Position numbers and translations under genes: made by a program
Notes under the pieces: generated by a model
What the model was told of the DNA's origin: nothing
Seen by the model: only the letters and a program-made list of their open reading frames with translations
Database searches by the model: none
In this document: in pieces, positions 9,026 through 50,970 of the stretch
Position numbering within the stretch: the stretch's first letter is position 1
How the letters are laid out: each line of letters opens with the position of its first letter
From: Escherichia phage EK010
Sequence record: NC_070981.1
Reading direction: 5' to 3' (one strand)
DNA length: 64,000 nt

Positions 9026-9235
9026 ATGAACATTCGTTTAGTTCGTGAGCAAGATGGCAGACAGGTTGTGCTAGGTGAGATTATCCGTGCTGCACACAAC
9101 CTACTCCCTGAAAAAGATGAAACTGTCTGGGTTGATGGAGAGTATCGCCGAGTGTTGTCGGTTGTTAAGTCCTTTGAACCAAAGCGTAACAATGAAAAAG
9201 CTCTTACCTGCTGGTTTGAGGTTAATATTACATAA
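9026..9235 (+). CDS. hypothetical small protein
   Basis: Internal ATG of track ORF 8924-9235 with AGAGAGG SD. Confidence 0.45.
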   Translation: MNIRLVREQDGRQVVLGEIIRAAHNLLPEKDETVWVDGEYRRVLSVVKSFEPKRNNEKALTCWFEVNIT

Positions 9236-9244
9236 GGGGTTGAT

Positions 9245-9496
9245 ATGTTCAATCGTTTATTTGACCGTAAAGGTCGCACTGACATACTGATACCTTCTAT
9301 CGGTGTGCCAGCTAAGTTCGGTGAGATACGTGCTGGTGATTTCTTCATGGAATCAGGTCGTCTTCATCTGAAGATCAACCTTGAACACGCTGTTGAAATC
9401 CTTAGTGATGATAAGCCAATCATCGGCACTTCGGTGTACAGTGCAAACCATACTGTATTTGTTGTCAATGTTCAGATTGAGATTAAATCACCATGA
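9245..9496 (+). CDS. small protein, paralog family A
   Basis: Track ORF; FGEIRAGDFF ... LHLKI motifs. Confidence 0.5.
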   Translation: MFNRLFDRKGRTDILIPSIGVPAKFGEIRAGDFFMESGRLHLKINLEHAVEILSDDKPIIGTSVYSANHTVFVVNVQIEIKSP

Positions 9497-17154: not shown

Positions 17155-17781
17155 ATGAGCTTGTTAAGAGATTTTCAACACTATTATTGTGGAACATGGA
17201 TTGCTCAGCGATCACCTGATGGTAAAAACCTCCCTCTATATGTGCTTGATGTTCGTCAGCAAGGTAACTTTGATATCGACGACTACTCACACGACGCTGA
17301 AATGTCTTTAGTGTTTGAGGCGGAACGCTGGACTAAAAACTCTGAAGGTCAGTTTGAACGTCAGATTGTTAGTAATATCCCAGTGTTTGATCACAGCCTC
17401 ATTCTAGAGTCTCCAGATGTAGGATACCTTCAGCATGGTAATAACATGGTGAGCTGGACCCATATCAACCCTGTTCGTCAGCGAGCTAAAGGCTTGATGG
17501 GGAATAAACTTCGTGGTGCTGCACCTTCTCTCGGACGTTCGATTCCGGGTGATTTGGTGTACAACTTGTTTAATCCAGAGTTTGAAGGGTTGGTTACTCG
17601 TTTCATCTATATCAACCCTGTCGATGGAAAAGTGTATTACAAAGGGGCTTACGTTGGAAACGTGCTTCTTGAAGCTGGCTATGGCGACAACGGTCGCCAA
17701 TCTTTAAACCTTCTGGAGAAGTTCAAGCATATTTCTTCAGACCTGTCATCATATAATGTAGAGTTGGTGGAATCATTATGA
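17155..17781 (+). CDS. hypothetical protein (208 aa)
   Basis: Track ORF. Confidence 0.6.
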   Translation: MSLLRDFQHYYCGTWIAQRSPDGKNLPLYVLDVRQQGNFDIDDYSHDAEMSLVFEAERWTKNSEGQFERQIVSNIPVFDHSLILESPDVGYLQHGNNMVSWTHINPVRQRAKGLMGNKLRGAAPSLGRSIPGDLVYNLFNPEFEGLVTRFIYINPVDGKVYYKGAYVGNVLLEAGYGDNGRQSLNLLEKFKHISSDLSSYNVELVESL

Positions 17782-22705: not shown

Positions 22706-22948
22706 ATGTTGTCTATCGAAGATTTGATCAGCCGTGGAATGACCGAAGAAAAAGAGCCTCTGATTGTAGGCTCTCGTAAAGCTATCAACCAACTCTGTGA
22801 AGAGTTCGGAATCACAAATAAGAGAATGATTGGTAATCAGTTCTCTGCAATCATCACCTTCCTCAAACGAGGTGATAAATATTCAATGGAATGTGCTGAG
22901 CGTATCATCGCAATTGCACAAGCAGATAAGGGAGTAACAAATCTATGA
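22706..22948 (+). CDS. hypothetical protein (80 aa)
   Basis: Track ORF. Confidence 0.5.
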   Translation: MLSIEDLISRGMTEEKEPLIVGSRKAINQLCEEFGITNKRMIGNQFSAIITFLKRGDKYSMECAERIIAIAQADKGVTNL

Positions 22949-24381: not shown

Positions 24382-26172
24382 ATGTCAAAGATCATTTTGG
24401 GAGACACAGGCTGTAAAGAGTGTATCTCTCATGGTCGTGATAAGACCCGCAATCACATGATTCTCTTCCGAAATGAAGAGTCCGGTGAGGAGTGGGGTTC
24501 ATGTAACAGATGTGGTGCGTATGAAATCTTCGAGAAAGGAACGACGCCCACTCCTAATGAAAAGAAAGAGCTGTCCCCTGAAGAACTCCGAGAAGTCTTA
24601 GACGATTGCTTAGAGCTTCCTCAGGGAGAGTTGACTCGTCGCTTAATTCCTAAAGCTGTATCTGAACGTTATGGATGCCGTATCGGTTTAAGCCAAACAG
24701 ATGGTCAAACTCCTGACAGCTACTTCTTCCCTCGTGAACGTGATGGGAACATTGTTGGATATGAAGTAAAACTTCTAGACAGCAAGAAGTTCTATTATGT
24801 AGGTAATGTGAAAGAAGCCGACTTGTTTGGTATGGCTCAAGCACAACGTGGTGACGTATACAACAAGAAACTCTTCATCTTTGAAGATCCTCTCTCTTGT
24901 ATGTCTGGGTTCCACGTACTTACCGCGTTTACAAACGCAACTAACATCAAACCTGCTTGCGTCTCTCTTCCGTTCGGTGCAGGTTCAATCTCTTCTGTAT
25001 TATCAAGAAACCGTGATTTTATTAATGGTTTCGAGGAGATTGTACTCTGCATGGACAATGATGATGCAGGTGAGATTGCTTTAACTAAGGGTCGTTCTCT
25101 GTACCCGCATGTTAAGTTTGCAAGGATTCCAAAAGGTACGTTCACTTATAACGGACAAGAAAAGGAAATCAAAGATGCAAACGACATGTTACTTGCAGGG
25201 AGAGGTCAAGAGCTTTTCAACAATCTGAAATATTCAGCTAAGCGGGAATCTCCTGCTGGAGCTGTTACAGTTTTTGATTGCCTCGAAGATGCTCTGAAGA
25301 AAGCGGAATGGGGTATCCCTTATCCGTGGAAAACTCTCAATGACATGACCTTTGGTATTCGTTGGGGAGAGATGGTTGCAATCGGTGGTGGTGTTGGTTC
25401 AGGTAAAACCTTAATCGCACATGAACTGGTAGCATGGCTTTGCCTTGAGCACGGTTTTAATGGTGGTGGCTTCTTCTTGGAAGAGAAGGTAGGCATGTCT
25501 GTTAAGAACATTGCAGGTAAATCCGCATCCATCCCATTCCACCGACCAGATGTTGAGTATGAAGAAAGTCAGCTACGAGATGAAGCACTTCGATACGCTG
25601 ATAAGTTTTTCTTGTACGACAACTTTGGGCAGAATGAGTGGGAAGACATTAAGCAGTGTATTCGCTTTTGGGTAGTTGAGAATCAGTGTAAATTTATCAT
25701 TCTTGATAACATCACTGCATTGGTATCTCACTTAACTCCGTCTGAGGTAAATACAGAAATCAGCAAGATTGCTTCAGAGCTTGCTGGTATGTGTAAGGAA
25801 CTGGACTTCACTGCTTTTGTGTTATCTCACTTGAATGCTCCGGCGGGCGGTGCCCCTCACGAAGAAGGTGGTCAGGTTAAAGAAGTACAGTTTACTGGCT
25901 CACGTTCATTAATGCGCTGGTGTCAATGTATTATCGGTTTCGAACGTAATAAACAAGCGGATGGGTTAGGTAAAAACTTGTCAATCATACGTCTGCTCAA
26001 AGAACGTAACTACGGACAGACAGGGGTTTGCTATACCAAATACATTAACGAAACAGGTCGTCTTGTGGAACGAGAAGATCATGAAGTTGATGAAGATAAT
26101 CCGTTTACAGTCACCAATGGAGAAGATGCAGCTTCCTTACTTTCACAAGAAGGGGAGGCACGTCCATGGTAA
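24382..26172 (+). CDS. DNA primase/helicase (T7 gp4-like)
   Basis: N-terminal Cys4 zinc ribbon, Walker [10 protein letters not shown], Walker B FIILDNIT. Confidence 0.85.
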
Positions 26173-26714
26173 AGAAACTGTATGCGTTTGATATTGAAGG
26201 TGATAACCTCTATGACGGTATTCAGAATGTCTGGTGTATATGGATATTTGATGTACTGTCTGGAGAACGGTGGGGGTATCGCCCTCACCAAATTGAAGAA
26301 GCACTACACAAACTGAAAGAAGCTGATGTAGTAATAGGTCACAATATTATTGATTTTGACCTTCCTGCTTTGTTTAAATTCTACTCTCATGTGATACCTT
26401 TTCGTTTTAATGTCTTTGATACCCTGTGCCTGAGTCGATACCTCAAGCCTGATCGTATTGGTGACAGTCCAGAATACCCCAAAGGCGACCCTAGACATGG
26501 ACCTCGCGGTCATGGCCTCAAGCAATGGGGCGAATTTCTGGGAGAGCTGAAGGGTGATTATGGCGAACAGGAAGAAGCATGGGATGCATTCACTGAAGAC
26601 ATGTTCACATATTGTGAGCAAGACGTTAACTTGACAGTTAAGGTTTACATGTGTCTTTGTCAAATGGCAGGATTTGATTATAAGAATCCCCCATCTCTCA
26701 ACTGGAAAATGTAG
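26166..26714 (+). CDS. DnaQ-like 3'-5' exonuclease (separately encoded proofreading domain)
   Basis: Exo I FDIEGD, Exo [13 protein letters not shown], Exo [11 protein letters not shown]. Confidence 0.8.
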
Positions 26715-26716
26715 AA

Positions 26717-29129: not shown

Positions 29130-29153
29130 TTGGTAGTAGATATGATAACTCTC

Positions 29154-29162
29154 AAATGTATA
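29154..29162 (+). promoter_or_regulatory. AAATGTATA motif (8/9 match to recurring TAATGTATA element)
   Basis: ~38 nt upstream of ATG 29200. Confidence 0.3.
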
Positions 29163-33954: not shown

Positions 33955-33963
33955 TAATGTATA
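33955..33963 (+). promoter_or_regulatory. TAATGTATA motif, candidate phage-sigma promoter element
   Basis: Exact 9-mer 33 nt upstream of ATG 33996. Confidence 0.4.
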
Positions 33964-33995: not shown

Positions 33996-34319
33996 ATGAT
34001 GACCGATAAGGCGAAACGTGATTATGCACAAGAACGAAGAACTGCAATCGCAAGGGGTGAAACCGGCGTTGGTAGCAAGAGCGGAGATGCTCAGCGCCAC
34101 CGTGCACGTCGCATCGTTGAAAAGCGCGATGGAAAAGCTGCTGTCCGAGGTAAAGATGTTGGACATAAACGATCAATCAAGTCGGGAGGTTCTAATGCGT
34201 CAAGTAACTTACGTGTTGAATCAGTCTCTCGAAATCGCTCGAACGGCGGCAAAAGTGGAGATCGTGCTGGAAAATCAGCAGGAGGAGTCAAATCGAGAAA
34301 AGGCGCTCTAAGTCAATGA
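33996..34319 (+). CDS. highly basic Gly/Arg/Lys-rich protein
   Basis: Track ORF with AAGGAG SD; chosen over overlapping frame 34018-34311. Confidence 0.5.
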   Translation: MMTDKAKRDYAQERRTAIARGETGVGSKSGDAQRHRARRIVEKRDGKAAVRGKDVGHKRSIKSGGSNASSNLRVESVSRNRSNGGKSGDRAGKSAGGVKSRKGALSQ

Positions 34320-35747: not shown

Positions 35748-37595
35748 GTGATGGATAACCCTGATAAGTTACCTTTCATAACGGAGATGACAGTCGCTGA
35801 TATAATCTCAAAACAAGCGAAGCATGGAGTCAACTTCAACAGAAGAAACGCTCGGTGGTTTGTTCACCTTCTCAAAGAGATTATTGTCAATATTGATAAA
35901 GAACTGATTCCTCTCCTCCCCAAAATGCGGGTGGATGGTTCAACTTATGCTAAGCCTTTTAAGAAATCAGGTGCTTTACAGAAGTGGCCTCAACTCTATT
36001 GTGATAGGGTTGGTCTTAAAAGAGAAGATATCGGTGGGGCGTTTACTTGCGTTGAGTATGTAGACTTTGACCCATCAAAAGATGCACGTATCAAAGAAGC
36101 CTTGATGGATGAAGGTTTTATACCTCCAGAGTGGAATTATTCTAAGAAACCTTGGAATACTTTTGAAATTCGTAAAGCTATGAAGAAGTATGGTACATAC
36201 TCTGCATGGTATTCTGCTTGGATTCGAGGTAACGCTAAAGAGAAACAGACAGCAGAGATGATAGATGCTGATATCCGAAGGTTTTTGGATAAGCACTTCC
36301 GTTATCACACTGTCAACTATATGAAAGCCTATGTCAGCGGTTTAGGTCTTAACCCTAACAGGAAGAAGCCTGTAACCTTTGATGAAATCAAAAAAGCTTT
36401 GGCTACATCAAACAAGTGGCCTACAGCCCCTACAAACCTTGAGGAGACTCTTGAAGAGGGGCTTGGGGGTGAGCTAGGGGGTGTAGGAAGTTTGCTTAAG
36501 AGACGCGTTGTAGCGGCTCACAGGCTAGGTTTGATTAGCGGGCTTATCGACAAGGAACGTAAAGATGGTAAGTTGTCCGCCGAAGCTAATAGCTGCGCTA
36601 CTCCGACATTTCGTTTTAAACATCGCATTGTTGTTAATATTCCTTCTCGCGGTTTGTTTGGTCACGAGTGCCGCAGTCTTTTTCAATCTGACTATTCCTC
36701 AGACGATAGTCATAACCATCCTTTCATCATTACCAACCATATCCCTGATGGGTGTTACGTACGAAAGGGTACTAACATTATCTACGAAATGGGAAAACCG
36801 GGCAAGAAAGACAAACCAATAGGTGCTTATAAATTTTATGTACCTGCTGGTCGTGAAATCTTCTTAGGTTACGATGGCTCTGGTCTTGAGCTGAGGATGC
36901 TTGCTCATTACCTTATCAAAGAATGTCGTGAGATGCTCGCTGAAGCAGAGCAGGAAAACAACCCAGCTAAGAAACGAGAAGCTGAACGCGGTCTAGCTTC
37001 TGCTGTTATGTACAGAGATATTCTTTTAGAAGGAGATATTCACTCACACAACCAAAAACTTGCTGGCCTTCCTACTCGTGATAATGCTAAAACGTTTATC
37101 TACGCATTCAACTACGGAGCTGGTGACGCTAAGTTAGGAAGCATCGTAGGTGGTGGCTCTGATGAAGGGGCTGTCATGAGGGCAAGATTCTTAGCAGAGA
37201 ATCCTTGTATTGCAATTCTTATTGAACGTATGACAGAGAAAGCACAAAGTGGATACATCTACGGTGTGGATGGACGTCGTATTACAATGAGAAGGGATGC
37301 AACTGGAAAGGTTATGGTTCATAAAGCCTTAAACACCCTCTTACAGAGCGCTGGGGCGATTGTTATGAAGTATGCAATGCTATTCCTTAATAAATGGATT
37401 GAGCGTGATGGTGTTCGTTGTGCGAAGGTTATTGACATGCATGATGAAGGCCAGTTCACTGTACATCGTGACGATGTTAACAAACTTCGTACCCTCACTG
37501 AAGAGTGTGTTCGTAAAGCAGGTGAATACCTCAAAATGGAATGTCCTCTTGCATCTGATTGTAAGATTGGGTTAAACTGGAATCACACTCACTAA
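35748..37595 (+). CDS. family-A DNA polymerase, polymerase domain
   Basis: Motif A DGSGLELRMLAHY, motif B KTFIYAFNYGAG, motif C VIDMHDEGQF. Confidence 0.9.
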   Translation: MMDNPDKLPFITEMTVADIISKQAKHGVNFNRRNARWFVHLLKEIIVNIDKELIPLLPKMRVDGSTYAKPFKKSGALQKWPQLYCDRVGLKREDIGGAFTCVEYVDFDPSKDARIKEALMDEGFIPPEWNYSKKPWNTFEIRKAMKKYGTYSAWYSAWIRGNAKEKQTAEMIDADIRRFLDKHFRYHTVNYMKAYVSGLGLNPNRKKPVTFDEIKKALATSNKWPTAPTNLEETLEEGLGGELGGVGSLLKRRVVAAHRLGLISGLIDKERKDGKLSAEANSCATPTFRFKHRIVVNIPSRGLFGHECRSLFQSDYSSDDSHNHPFIITNHIPDGCYVRKGTNIIYEMGKPGKKDKPIGAYKFYVPAGREIFLGYDGSGLELRMLAHYLIKECREMLAEAEQENNPAKKREAERGLASAVMYRDILLEGDIHSHNQKLAGLPTRDNAKTFIYAFNYGAGDAKLGSIVGGGSDEGAVMRARFLAENPCIAILIERMTEKAQSGYIYGVDGRRITMRRDATGKVMVHKALNTLLQSAGAIVMKYAMLFLNKWIERDGVRCAKVIDMHDEGQFTVHRDDVNKLRTLTEECVRKAGEYLKMECPLASDCKIGLNWNHTH

Positions 37596-37996: not shown

Positions 37997-38160
37997 TGGA
38001 TTTGATTCGTAAACCTGCTCCAAAATGGAATGTATATTTCCAAGATGCTACAGGAAAATTTCACAACCAACTGGTTTATTCTGATGAAGAACGCGATGAA
38101 GTCGCTGCTCAGATTAAAGCGGATGGTGGTACAGTTCTCAAAATTTATGAAAGGGAGTAA
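37993..38160 (+). CDS. possible small protein (55 aa)
   Basis: ATGA-coupled to previous ORF; below track cut-off. Confidence 0.35.
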   Translation: MMDLIRKPAPKWNVYFQDATGKFHNQLVYSDEERDEVAAQIKADGGTVLKIYERE

Positions 38161-39923: not shown

Positions 39924-40536
39924 AGTTTATTTTGCAGGTGATGGTCACCTAGGCCATCGTAACATCTGTAACTTTAGGAAGAAGTTTAGTAGTATTGAAG
40001 AACATGATAAAGCTATCTTAGCAGCGTTTGATCATGTTACTAAACGCGATAAAACTTTCTTTACAGGTGACTGGGTGTTTGAGAAATATGCACTTGATAT
40101 TATCGCTGAAGTAAAGGGAGAGAAACATCTTGTCTTAGGGAACCATGACAGATTAGAACTTCTCCCTGATATGATGAAAGTCTTTAGACATATCAGCGGT
40201 GATTATAAGTACAAAGAATTTTGGGTAACTCATATTCCTATCCACTCTGATGAAATGAGAGGAAAGTATAATATCTATGCTCATACTCATAATTCTACTA
40301 TCAGAGATTGGAGATACTTCTGTACTTCTATGGAACAAATTGATTACAGAGCTGTGTCTCTGCAAGAGATTAGAAAAGAACTGGAAAGTAGGAAAGAGTG
40401 GGTAGCTTCTTTATTACAAAAAGATCATCCAATTACCAGCGAAGTACAAGAGATGTTAAGTAAACAAGCTGAATCTAACTTACCTTTTCAGAGAACAGTA
40501 GAACAAACTAGCTTTAAAGGTCTTTTAGAATGGTAG
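39916..40536 (+). CDS. calcineurin-like metallophosphoesterase
   Basis: GDGHLGH, FTGDWVF, LGNHD motifs. Confidence 0.7.
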   Translation: MAEVYFAGDGHLGHRNICNFRKKFSSIEEHDKAILAAFDHVTKRDKTFFTGDWVFEKYALDIIAEVKGEKHLVLGNHDRLELLPDMMKVFRHISGDYKYKEFWVTHIPIHSDEMRGKYNIYAHTHNSTIRDWRYFCTSMEQIDYRAVSLQEIRKELESRKEWVASLLQKDHPITSEVQEMLSKQAESNLPFQRTVEQTSFKGLLEW

Positions 40537-40730
40537 AAGTTATTGTTTTAAGTTAAGTTTTCTTTTGATTTTAATAGAGAATCAAAGTCCTAGGAGTCCT
40601 CAACCTAAATCAAGGATTTCCTTAATTCTCTATTTTTATCTCGCAGGTGTCTCCTGCCCTTCGGTACTTGCAAGGGTTACGATGATTGCCCAATATACAA
40701 GCCTGCAATAGCTTTACTAGCTATACCATA

Positions 40731-40739
40731 TATACATTA
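40731..40739 (-). promoter_or_regulatory. TAATGTATA motif on minus strand
   Basis: Plus-strand TATACATTA; orientation opposite to neighbouring genes. Confidence 0.25.
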
Positions 40740-40801
40740 CTACTTACTGTTATCTACTACCAAAAAGGTTATAGTATAATAGAACCTTATCTGTATAAGT
40801 G

Positions 40802-40810
40802 TAATGTATA
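40802..40810 (+). promoter_or_regulatory. TAATGTATA motif, candidate phage-sigma promoter element
   Basis: Exact 9-mer ~60 nt upstream of ATG 40870. Confidence 0.4.
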
Positions 40811-40869
40811 TAGTATACAAACCGCTCAAAGAGAGCAACAATCTTAAATCTATATAAGGAAATATTAAT

Positions 40870-41610
40870 ATGTCTATGATCCCTGAACTGTCTGTATCCC
40901 GTAAATCCAACTACGATGTAATCCCTGATGGTGAGTACGAAGCACGTATTGTTCGTGTTGTAGGTTTGGGTGTTCACAATCGTGACCCTTGGATTGACCC
41001 TAAAACCAAAGCAGTTACTCCTAAGAACCCAGCTTTCCGTATGGACTTAGCTTTTGAGCTGATTGGCGTAGATGCAACAGGGACTGATAATGAAGGCAAA
41101 CCTCTGGACCCTCGCCCTGCTTGCCAGTTTAAATCTTTCGATGTAAATCCACGAGCTAAGAACTCTGGTATTCTGAATCTGATTAAAATGATCGACCCAA
41201 GTGTTCAAGCACTGAAAGGTGATTTGGGTTGGTTTAAAGATATGCTGTTAGGTCAGCCTGTTAACATTCTGGTTAATTCCTATGTAAACAAAGCTGGTGA
41301 GAAGAAAAACTCTATTAAGAGTATCACTCCAATTCCGACCAAATATCGTGATGCTGTAGGTGCTCCTCGTAGTGAGTTGATCTTCTTCGAACCGTATGCT
41401 GAGACTGATGCTAACTTAGCTGCTTATCAAGCAATCTTCCCATTCCAACGTAACCTCTTGACTCAAGCTAACGATGCTAAGAACATTCCTCTGGCTGGTC
41501 GTGAAGTTACCAAAGCTTCTGACACTGAACAGAAGGACGCAACTCCGAGTATCCCTACTATTAATGAAGAGCCGCAGTCTACCTTTGAAGAGGACGACTC
41601 TCCTTTCTGA
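40870..41610 (+). CDS. possible single-stranded DNA-binding protein
   Basis: Acidic C-terminal tail ending EEDDSPF, reminiscent of SSB C-termini (DDDIPF); no fold evidence. Confidence 0.4.
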   Translation: MSMIPELSVSRKSNYDVIPDGEYEARIVRVVGLGVHNRDPWIDPKTKAVTPKNPAFRMDLAFELIGVDATGTDNEGKPLDPRPACQFKSFDVNPRAKNSGILNLIKMIDPSVQALKGDLGWFKDMLLGQPVNILVNSYVNKAGEKKNSIKSITPIPTKYRDAVGAPRSELIFFEPYAETDANLAAYQAIFPFQRNLLTQANDAKNIPLAGREVTKASDTEQKDATPSIPTINEEPQSTFEEDDSPF

Positions 41611-41633: not shown

Positions 41634-41657
41634 AGCCACCTTCGGGTGGCTTTTTTC
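41634..41657 (+). terminator. intrinsic terminator
   Basis: AGCCACC-TTCG-GGTGGCT hairpin, TTTTT. Confidence 0.75.
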
Positions 41658-42493: not shown

Positions 42494-42707
42494 TTTATCA
42501 GCTTGTTCAACGAGCGACAACAGCAGGCAATCAATGCCCTTACCAACAAACCTAAAAGCTGAATGTAGAGTTGACCTACCTCTTTTAGAGAGTGCTCAAG
42601 GGAAGGCACTAGCCACTACGTTGGAGTGGTATCAGGACCAGTACACAGAATGTGCTGCTAATCACAATGGATTGTTAGAAGCTCTGAAAGAGCGTGGAAT
42701 AGAATAA
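42417..42707 (+). CDS. putative lipoprotein (lipobox LSAC)
   Basis: ATG inside track ORF 42387-42707; overlaps 3' end of HNH gene. Confidence 0.4.
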   Translation: MIHWKELSVHIKKKLLSCTGILLAFSLSACSTSDNSRQSMPLPTNLKAECRVDLPLLESAQGKALATTLEWYQDQYTECAANHNGLLEALKERGIE

Positions 42708-43045
42708 TGGAAGTCCTTAATTTCTACAAAGAGGGGTTGAAGATTCCAGAAGGCGCTATTTACATAGGAAGATATAGTGCCAAGCATGGTCTACCACAAT
42801 CTAAGTATCACAACCCAATAAAGCTCCAAGAGGGTGAGCCAAGAGGTTCTACTCTGGATAAGTATAGGAAATATTTATGGGGTGAGATAAAAGCTGGCAG
42901 AATAACTGTGGAAGAGCTTGCAAATCTGTATGGAACAAACCTTGTGTGTTATTGTAAGCCCAAACCTTGTCATGGGGATATCCTTATGGCTGCTATAAAA
43001 TGGGCAAAAGAAGAAATGGATAATGCTATAACTAAGGAAAGATGA
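42707..43045 (+). CDS. DUF4326-like protein (CYCxPxPCHGD motif)
   Basis: Track ORF; motif [15 protein letters not shown]; assignment from memory. Confidence 0.45.
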
Positions 43046-43695
43046 TGGCGAAGAAGACAACACCTACAAGATATCGAATTCATGGAATCCCTATTAAGTA
43101 TATCTCAAACTATGAAGAGTTTTACAGAGTGAACTGGAAAGTGGTTCACAAGTTCTTCATGTATGATATCAGGGATTATCATGAAGCAGAAGATGTGGCA
43201 CAAGAAGTGCTCTTGAATGCTTGGAGATTTGTCTTCGCTAAGCAGGATGAGAGAGTCCTAGAGGATGAGAAAGACCAAGAGCATATGACTTATCGAGTCA
43301 AGAACATTATCTGGTCGATTCGTTCTAATCGTCAGACAGTTGGAGACCGACGTATCTACTCTATTCCAGAGGCTGATATGTTTAGACCTCCTGAGATGAA
43401 CTCATGGGAAAGTCCTTTAGAAATTGCGATGGATAAGCATGATTCTACTGGAGACCCATTCTTGGAATCTAGAATCTTTTTCTTCTTCCAAGACCTGAGT
43501 GACATTATGGAAAACCGTAAGATGGCAAGCATGTTCTCAATGCTCTTTCTCGGCATCCCACATGATCACATCCAGCAGGAGCTGGGAATTTCACACGGAA
43601 CCTTCTATCGCCGTTATGCAGAGAATCGTGATCTGTATGAAGCGGTAGTAGAGAAGCACTTTGATAAAGAAGATCTTCAAGGGATGATTCAATAA
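43042..43695 (+). CDS. phage-encoded sigma factor (sigma70/ECF-like)
   Basis: Region-2-like [15 protein letters not shown] and C-terminal HTH-like region. Confidence 0.65.
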
Positions 43696-50936: not shown

Positions 50937-50945
50937 TATACATTA
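50937..50945 (-). promoter_or_regulatory. TAATGTATA motif, candidate phage-sigma promoter element
   Basis: Exact 9-mer on minus strand 37 nt upstream of start codon at 50900. Confidence 0.4.
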
Positions 50946-50970
50946 TAAGAGATAGGACTTAGGTCTTAGA

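Follow-up and report, generated by a model that had tools for sequence, protein, structure and literature searches.

The sigma factor gp36 of phage phiEco32 and the tAATGTAtA promoters that it reads are reportedly to be credited to Pavlova et al. 2012. In phiEco32, six promoters, located upstream of genes 6, 13, 26, 40, 58 and 68, are read by the gp36 holoenzyme, to which all six were assigned by in vitro transcription (PMC8948821). These promoters have a single conserved element, tAATGTAtA, with transcription starting 6-8 bp downstream of it (PMC8948821, PMC4331800), and they comprise the middle promoters of genes 40, 58 and 68 and the late promoters of genes 6, 13 and 26 (PMC4331800, PMC4281155). 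In the six phages of the published Table S3, the element reads TAATGTAgA in P6, TAATGTATA in P13, P26, P40 and P58, and aAATGTATA in P68 (PMC8948821). AATGTA covers positions -14 to -9. In P68, the C-terminal domain of gp36 makes contact further upstream, with -37G and -34A (PMC12276001). As visualised by cryo-EM, residues of gp36 bond with the AATG bases, and mutating these residues impairs activity (PMC12276001). The RNAP clamp helices are contacted by D44, E47, E49, D50 and E54, the -10 element by E79, H80, Y83, R84, W90, S91, S94 and N95, and the -35 region by Y186 and R187 (PMC12276001). A second phage protein, gp79, displaces region 4 of sigma70 and stabilises the C-terminal domain of gp36; it is an inhibitor of the sigma70 holoenzyme and an activator of the gp36 holoenzyme, and the late promoter P26 is stimulated by gp79 in vitro (PMC12276001).

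Here, we analysed a stretch of 64,000 nucleotides from Escherichia phage EK010 (NC_070981.1), referred to as the window. Over the 6 kb around its sigma factor gene, the sequence matches Escherichia phage E20-1 (OP293233.1) with 100% identity and ~96 other phiEco32-like coliphages with 80-93%; window position w is position 77851 - w, reverse strand, of the E20-1 record. E20-1 is a phiEco32-like podophage (Caudoviricetes, Gordonclarkvirinae) filed under Kuravirus. Plus-strand genes up to ~46 kb of the window are early and middle genes, and the structural genes beyond ~46 kb are on the minus strand. The phage is a sequenced relative that carries the phiEco32 gp36/gp79 transcription switch, a system that is already characterised. 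The sigma factor and its promoters are known down to the cryo-EM open complex. The value of the original prediction is in annotation: names can now be given to the sigma gene, its co-factor and four promoters, the latter with predicted start sites (Table 1). The only possibly new detail is an extra, conserved promoter copy that points backward, here called Pdiv.

The original prediction had placed a phage sigma factor at 43042-43695 (+). This frame is indeed open and encodes 217 aa; the second ATG at 43045 (216 aa) is favoured by the annotation of E20-1 and by the N-terminus of phiEco32 gp36 (MAKK). The product is 87% identical to gp36 over 215 aa (E=2e-146) and matches chain F of PDB 9M7Y, i.e. 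gp36 in the cryo-EM open complex (E=1.1e-127), as well as PHROG 1740, "RNA polymerase sigma factor" (E=3e-42). All 15 of the gp36 residues listed above, with their contacts to DNA or to the RNAP clamp helices, are identical, and those of the flap-tip-helix and the gp79-binding groove are identical save for M138, which is replaced by L; the window protein also differs from gp36 by a 2-residue insertion in the inter-domain linker. A sigma70 region-2-like segment had been claimed from the letters, and it lies inside a match to Pfam Sigma70_r2 (PF04542; residues 25-63, E=0.0013), which is itself sub-threshold with 18.9 bits against a cut-off of 24. NCBIfam TIGR02937 (sigma70-ECF) aligns over nearly the full length (residues 23-191) with 20.4 bits against a cut-off of 42.9, and the protein is below both of these curated sigma-70/ECF family cut-offs. 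In other words, it is a distant sequence relative of the sigma-70/ECF family, and the resemblance in fold rests on the published structure. The C-terminal HTH-like region of the original prediction corresponds to the sigma4-like domain, for which the cryo-EM structure shows contacts with the -35 region (PMC12276001).

Based on orthology, conserved contacts, motif enrichment and the syntenic, intergenic placement of the promoters, we suggest, with a probability of roughly 0.93, that this gene encodes the phage's own sigma factor, a two-domain, distantly ECF-like orthologue of gp36 that would use the gp36-type promoter mechanism. For this phage, the dependence on sigma, the points of initiation and the timing are inferred from the experiments on phiEco32. 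In E20-1, SU7, ECBP2 and others, the gene is labelled "hypothetical protein" (records OP293233.1, MZ342906.1); the SU7 genome paper reports having been unable to identify an alternative sigma factor, and the SU7 copy is 92% identical to the protein described here. Immediately upstream, a DUF4326 gene (42707-43045, +; E=1.9e-17) occupies the position of the phiEco32 macro-domain gene 37, which it replaces, with a stop codon that runs into the sigma start (ATGATG). This overlap suggests translational coupling.

Table 1. Coordinates of the sigma factor gene, its partner, promoters and associated elements in the window
Feature	Position	Strand	Details
gp79 orthologue	22706..22948	+	80 aa, 76% identity to phiEco32 gp79, E=2e-47; PHROG 8339
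P68 orthologue, middle	29130..29162	+	-35 block TTGGTAGTAGATA 29130-29142; -10 AAATGTATA 29154-29162; predicted start ~29169
P58 orthologue, middle	33955..33963	+	TAATGTATA; predicted start ~33970; 47-bp intergenic gap
Predicted non-coding Pdiv transcript	40560..40724	-	includes ~100-nt block 40570-40665
Pdiv, predicted gp36 promoter, divergent from P40	40724..40763	-	-35 TTGGTAGTAGATA 40751-40763; TAATGTATA 40731-40739; predicted start ~40724
P40 orthologue, middle	40802..40810	+	TAATGTATA; predicted start ~40817; before gp40-like gene 40870-41610
Strong intrinsic-terminator-like hairpin	41634..41651	+	directly after gp40-like gene, upstream of sigma gene
Putative phage sigma gene, phiEco32 gp36 orthologue	43045..43695	+	216 aa; alternative start 43042 (217 aa)
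P26 orthologue, late	50937..50968	-	TAAGACC 50962-50968; TAATGTATA 50937-50945; predicted start ~50930; upstream of 1481-aa gp26-like gene

In the phiEco32 genome, the motif is found upstream of the published genes. For the window, exact copies of TAATGTATA had been claimed at 33955 (+), 40802 (+) and 50937-50945 (-) together with an 8/9 copy at 29154, and a likeness to the promoters of phiEco32-type sigma factors had been pointed out. All of these copies are present, and the likeness is correct, as the gp36 orthologue, the published consensus tAATGTAtA and the syntenic sites all attest. By synteny, these four sites are the orthologues of P26, P40, P58 and P68, four among the six phiEco32 promoters that were mapped by experiment: in-register alignment pairs 50944 (-) with P26, 40803 (+) with P40, 33956 (+) with P58 and 29155 (+) with P68, and the tAATGTAtA elements are co-oriented with the orthologues of genes 26, 40, 58 and 68. 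The distance from motif to start codon, given as 33-60 nt, is 33 nt at 33955, 60 nt at 40802 and 37 nt at 50937-50945, and the predicted leaders are 31 nt (from 29169), 26 nt (33970), 53 nt (40817) and 30 nt (50930) long. The gene downstream of 33955 does encode a basic protein (107 aa, at 33996, pI 11.6). P6 and P13 are outside the window; the remainder of the E20-1 record has them where they would be expected, P6 as TAATGTAGA at 1385 and P13 as TAATGTATT at 9371, the latter being a difference from P13 of phiEco32.

Beyond the -10 element, the promoters differ in their upstream sequences. P68 of the window is almost base-for-base identical to P68 of phiEco32 from -39 to -5, with the same AAATGTATA variant, and has both -37G and -34A. 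P40 of the window has T at -37 where P68 has G, and phiEco32 P40 has A; recognition of the -35 region may thus differ between promoters. TAAGACC-N16-TAATGTAT is common to P13 and P26, which are late promoters, in phiEco32 (9078-9110 and 25991-26023) as well as in E20-1 (record positions 9349-9378 for one site, the other having its TAAGACC at 50962-50968 (-) of the window). In P68, a middle promoter, and in Pdiv, the common sequence is TTGGTAGTAGAT-N12-(T/A)AATGTATA, and -34A is the sole upstream feature common to P13, P26, P68 and Pdiv. Such class-specific upstream elements, TTGGTAGTAG in middle and TAAGACC-N16 in late promoters, might be the basis of middle versus late timing. Knowledge could be gained from two sources here, namely Pdiv with its structured RNA and, second, these middle and late upstream blocks.

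Pdiv is marked by a fourth exact copy of TAATGTATA (40731-40739, -), which was missing from the original prediction. Pdiv and P40 are 62 bp apart and point in opposite directions. Pdiv and P68 agree in the block TTGGTAGTAGATA, in spacer length (12 nt) and in the -10 element, and Pdiv has the determinants of P68 activity, i.e. AATGTA at -14 to -9, -37G and -34A. When scored with a weight matrix that includes the -35 columns, Pdiv is the best site in the window (25.2 versus a maximum of 19.3 in 30 shuffles). In a conservation alignment of 11 genomes from three genera (Kuravirus, Suseptimavirus and Nieuwekanaalvirus), the -10 element of Pdiv is invariant in 11/11 and the -35 block in 10/11, the spacer varies freely, and the pattern TGGTAGTA-N16-AATGTATA is present at Pdiv in every genome (11/11). 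The element is also carried by phiEco32 itself (36681-36712, plus strand). Complete phiEco32-like genomes in IMG/VR have at most two copies of the exact full Pdiv/P68 element. Two copies are present in phiEco32, NJ01 and ECBP2, and in phiEco32 and E20-1 these are P68 and Pdiv; two other complete IMG/VR genomes have the exact bipartite pattern only once. Three short IMG/VR contigs that also match the bipartite element were rejected as representing one unrelated phage, in which the match, with its 12-nt spacer, is inside coding sequence and due to chance.

Pdiv is absent from four later papers that restate the list of six promoters (PMC8948821, PMC4331800, PMC4281155, PMC12276001). A search for a Kuravirus transcriptome returned none. 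A divergent promoter was also sought upstream of the gp40 homologue in phages 7-11 and GAP52, with a forward promoter as the only one found, and in the Proteus and Aeromonas relatives the gap before the gp40 homologue is only 54-75 bp. The Pdiv arrangement is specific to the phiEco32-like subfamily.

The region into which Pdiv would direct transcription has several features of its own. A block of ~100 nt (40570-40665) hardly varies between the three genera. On its plus strand, a long hairpin is followed by a T-run, and this strand reads as a terminator for the upstream genes. Upon folding, the minus-strand RNA is more stable than expected, with z=-3.8 (0/200 shuffles as stable) versus z=-2.5 for the plus strand. 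The consensus fold of the eight sequences with version A of the adjacent cassette (see below) has a 5' hairpin at the predicted Pdiv start in which two pairs have compensatory double changes; in other stems, G-C is changed to G.U in three sequences and A-U to G.U in one, changes that are tolerated solely in the minus-strand RNA. Because the sequences are closely related, these covariation and strand-specific G.U signals suggest a conserved RNA fold but do not prove it. No conserved ORF was found downstream of Pdiv, and an Rfam scan of 40000-41200 gave no match. Between the invariant block and Pdiv (~40666-40705) is a short cassette that occurs in two unrelated versions, version A in E20-1, SU7, phiEco32 and others, and version B in ECBP2, MN05 and myPSH2311; myPSH2311 also has an extra insertion of ~130 bp between Pdiv and P40.

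Taking these observations together, we tentatively propose that Pdiv may be a seventh working promoter of the P68 class, which would direct transcription against the direction of the middle genes and produce a conserved, structured non-coding RNA of ~160 nt or more. A competing reading, also a serious one if somewhat doubtful, is that Pdiv is not a promoter and is either left over, in conserved form, from a duplication of P68, or serves as a further binding site for the holoenzyme whose only effect is to modulate P40. The likeness to P68 spans -39 to ~+3, as fits a duplication, and the lack of a gene downstream, of a detectable terminator for such a transcript and of a place among the six promoters reported for phiEco32 all agree with this reading. 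Against it, both elements are kept across the 11 genomes while the 12-nt spacer between them is free to change, as would result if selection acted on a functional bipartite promoter; Pdiv also retains all determinants with a demonstrated role in P68, and the region downstream carries strand-specific signals of RNA structure. If Pdiv does produce an RNA, this product could shield the gp40/sigma operon against read-through from upstream, serve as an antisense regulator, or prime an origin of replication, and the gp40-like neighbour weakly matches replication-initiation proteins. At oriF and oriG of phage T4, transcripts from middle promoters prime replication. The GC skew around 40.7 kb of the window follows gene direction only, with no origin-like switch.

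A further question is whether the phage sigma factor reads these sites at all. In SU10, predicted sigma70-type promoters overlap three middle promoters and dual recognition has been suggested (PMC4281155), and the sites in the window could, accordingly, be promoters for host sigma70 or of dual specificity that the phage sigma-like protein does not read. We consider this very unlikely: a consensus scan finds no good sigma70 promoter at P40 on the plus strand, the six promoters of phiEco32 were assigned to the gp36 holoenzyme in vitro, the bonds between gp36 residues and AATG have been visualised and mutation of these residues impairs activity, and the sigma70 holoenzyme is shut off by gp79, for which the window has a gene as well.

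The original prediction had asked for a comparison of the motif with shuffled sequence, and the exact 9-mer does exceed the expectation from composition, with four copies in the window versus 0.58 expected (Poisson P ~0.003; 0/100 dinucleotide shuffles reach four). The four exact copies, like the 8/9 copy at 29154, all fall in annotated intergenic gaps which, as taken from the deposited E20-1 annotation and summed by hand, make up 4.9% of window 25851-64000. When both strands (128,000 positions) were scanned with a weight matrix for which the six phiEco32 promoters were the sole training set, these five sites ranked 1-5 on the -10 region, with scores from 17.4 to 13.75 and the next site at 12.25; the maximum of this -10-only matrix in shuffles was 17.5. 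One-mismatch copies are, as a class, not enriched (19 found versus 19.0 expected), and the copy at 29154, which is real and reads AAATGTATA, is therefore validated by its orthology to phiEco32 P68 and not by statistics. That the copies are mere chance occurrences of an AT-rich word without promoter function, as the chance rate of one-mismatch copies, a best -10-only score within reach of shuffles and accidental-looking intragenic near-copies at 38028 and 17754 could be taken to mean, is refuted in practice by synteny with the experimentally mapped promoters, and it also has against it the excess of exact copies, their confinement to intergenic sequence and the invariance of the motif between variable flanks in 11 genomes, leaving this reading with next to no credit. 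Three near-copies were set aside, all on the plus strand, as not conserved in phiEco32 and probably due to chance or coding constraint, i.e. GAATGTATA at 38028-38036 inside ORF47, TAATGTAGA at 17754-17762, which is 16 nt before the start codon at 17778, and AAATGTAGA at 26707-26715 at a stop/start junction.

The partner of gp36 is encoded in the window as well, and the contact residues of this gp79 orthologue are identical or conservatively replaced. Together with the phiEco32 experiments, this leads to the following model for the switch in transcription. The N-terminal sigma2-like domain of the phage sigma factor would bind the clamp helices of RNAP and read AATGTA at -14 to -9 of tAATGTAtA, and its C-terminal sigma4-like domain would sit on the flap-tip helix and touch positions ~-37 and -34. 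The gp79 orthologue would displace region 4 of host sigma70, by which host and early transcription would be turned off, and would also stabilise the C-terminal domain of the phage sigma factor. The phage holoenzyme would then initiate ~7 nt downstream of each TAATGTATA, giving middle transcripts from ~29169, 33970 and 40817 (+) and a late transcript from ~50930 (-).

The sigma gene itself is 1.4 kb downstream of the terminator-like hairpin that follows the gp40-like gene. This hairpin (AGCCACC-TTCG-GGTGGCT) has a 7-bp stem with five G-C pairs and a 4-nt loop and is followed by a T-run. A search directly in front of the sigma gene found no promoter, including no good sigma70-like one, and we infer that the gene belongs to the P40 transcription unit. 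Because of the hairpin and the lack of a sigma70 promoter before the sigma gene, the first sigma protein would come from read-through of upstream transcription, and P40 would then provide sigma with positive feedback.

The gp40-like gene behind P40 had been described as SSB-like. One GenBank record of a homologue does name a ssDNA-binding protein; no Pfam match was found for the product (pI 5.1), and the label is weak. The protein aligns over nearly its full length with NF046043 (phage replication-initiation), below threshold at 23.5 bits against a cut-off of 75. The order gp40, sigma, exonuclease is kept out to phages of Proteus, Aeromonas, Salmonella and Cronobacter. In the leader of the gp40-like gene, the segment 40820-40846 (+), AACCGCTCAAAGAGAGCAACAATCTT, is almost invariant in the 11 genomes and more conserved than the start of the coding sequence, and it may be a translational or RNA-stability element.

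The closest known system is gp36/gp79 of phiEco32 (PMC8948821, PMC12276001), to which the window corresponds in both orthologues (87% and 76%), in the 9-mer, in the synteny of the promoters and in genome layout. Salmonella phage 7-11 shares the module of gp40 homologue, sigma (SaPh711_gp47) and exonuclease, and its promoters occupy similar places in the genome, one of them in front of the gp40 homologue. However, its late promoters are bipartite, GTAAtg-(16)-aCTA, unlike tAATGTAtA (PMC8948821), its sigma protein is only ~15% identical, and it is without gp79, a middle class and a divergent second promoter.

Like the gp36 type, bacterial ECF (group 4) sigma factors are two-domain proteins with sigma2 and sigma4, as echoed by the weak TIGR02937 alignment, and "ECF sigma factor" is the name of the homologue in several GenBank records. 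By contrast to ECF sigma factors, the gp36 structure has a rotated first helix and a shortened sigma4-like helix (PMC12276001), the AATGTA -10 element of the gp36 type is read partly as duplex DNA, and the gp36 type is without an anti-sigma partner and has the co-activator gp79 instead. In phage T4, AsiA/MotA and the late sigma factor gp55 follow a similar design in that a phage protein remodels or displaces region 4 of sigma70 and RNAP is redirected to phage middle or late promoters, a comparison drawn in PMC12276001. In the system described here, however, a separate phage sigma factor replaces sigma70 altogether, and there is no sequence relationship between the two systems.
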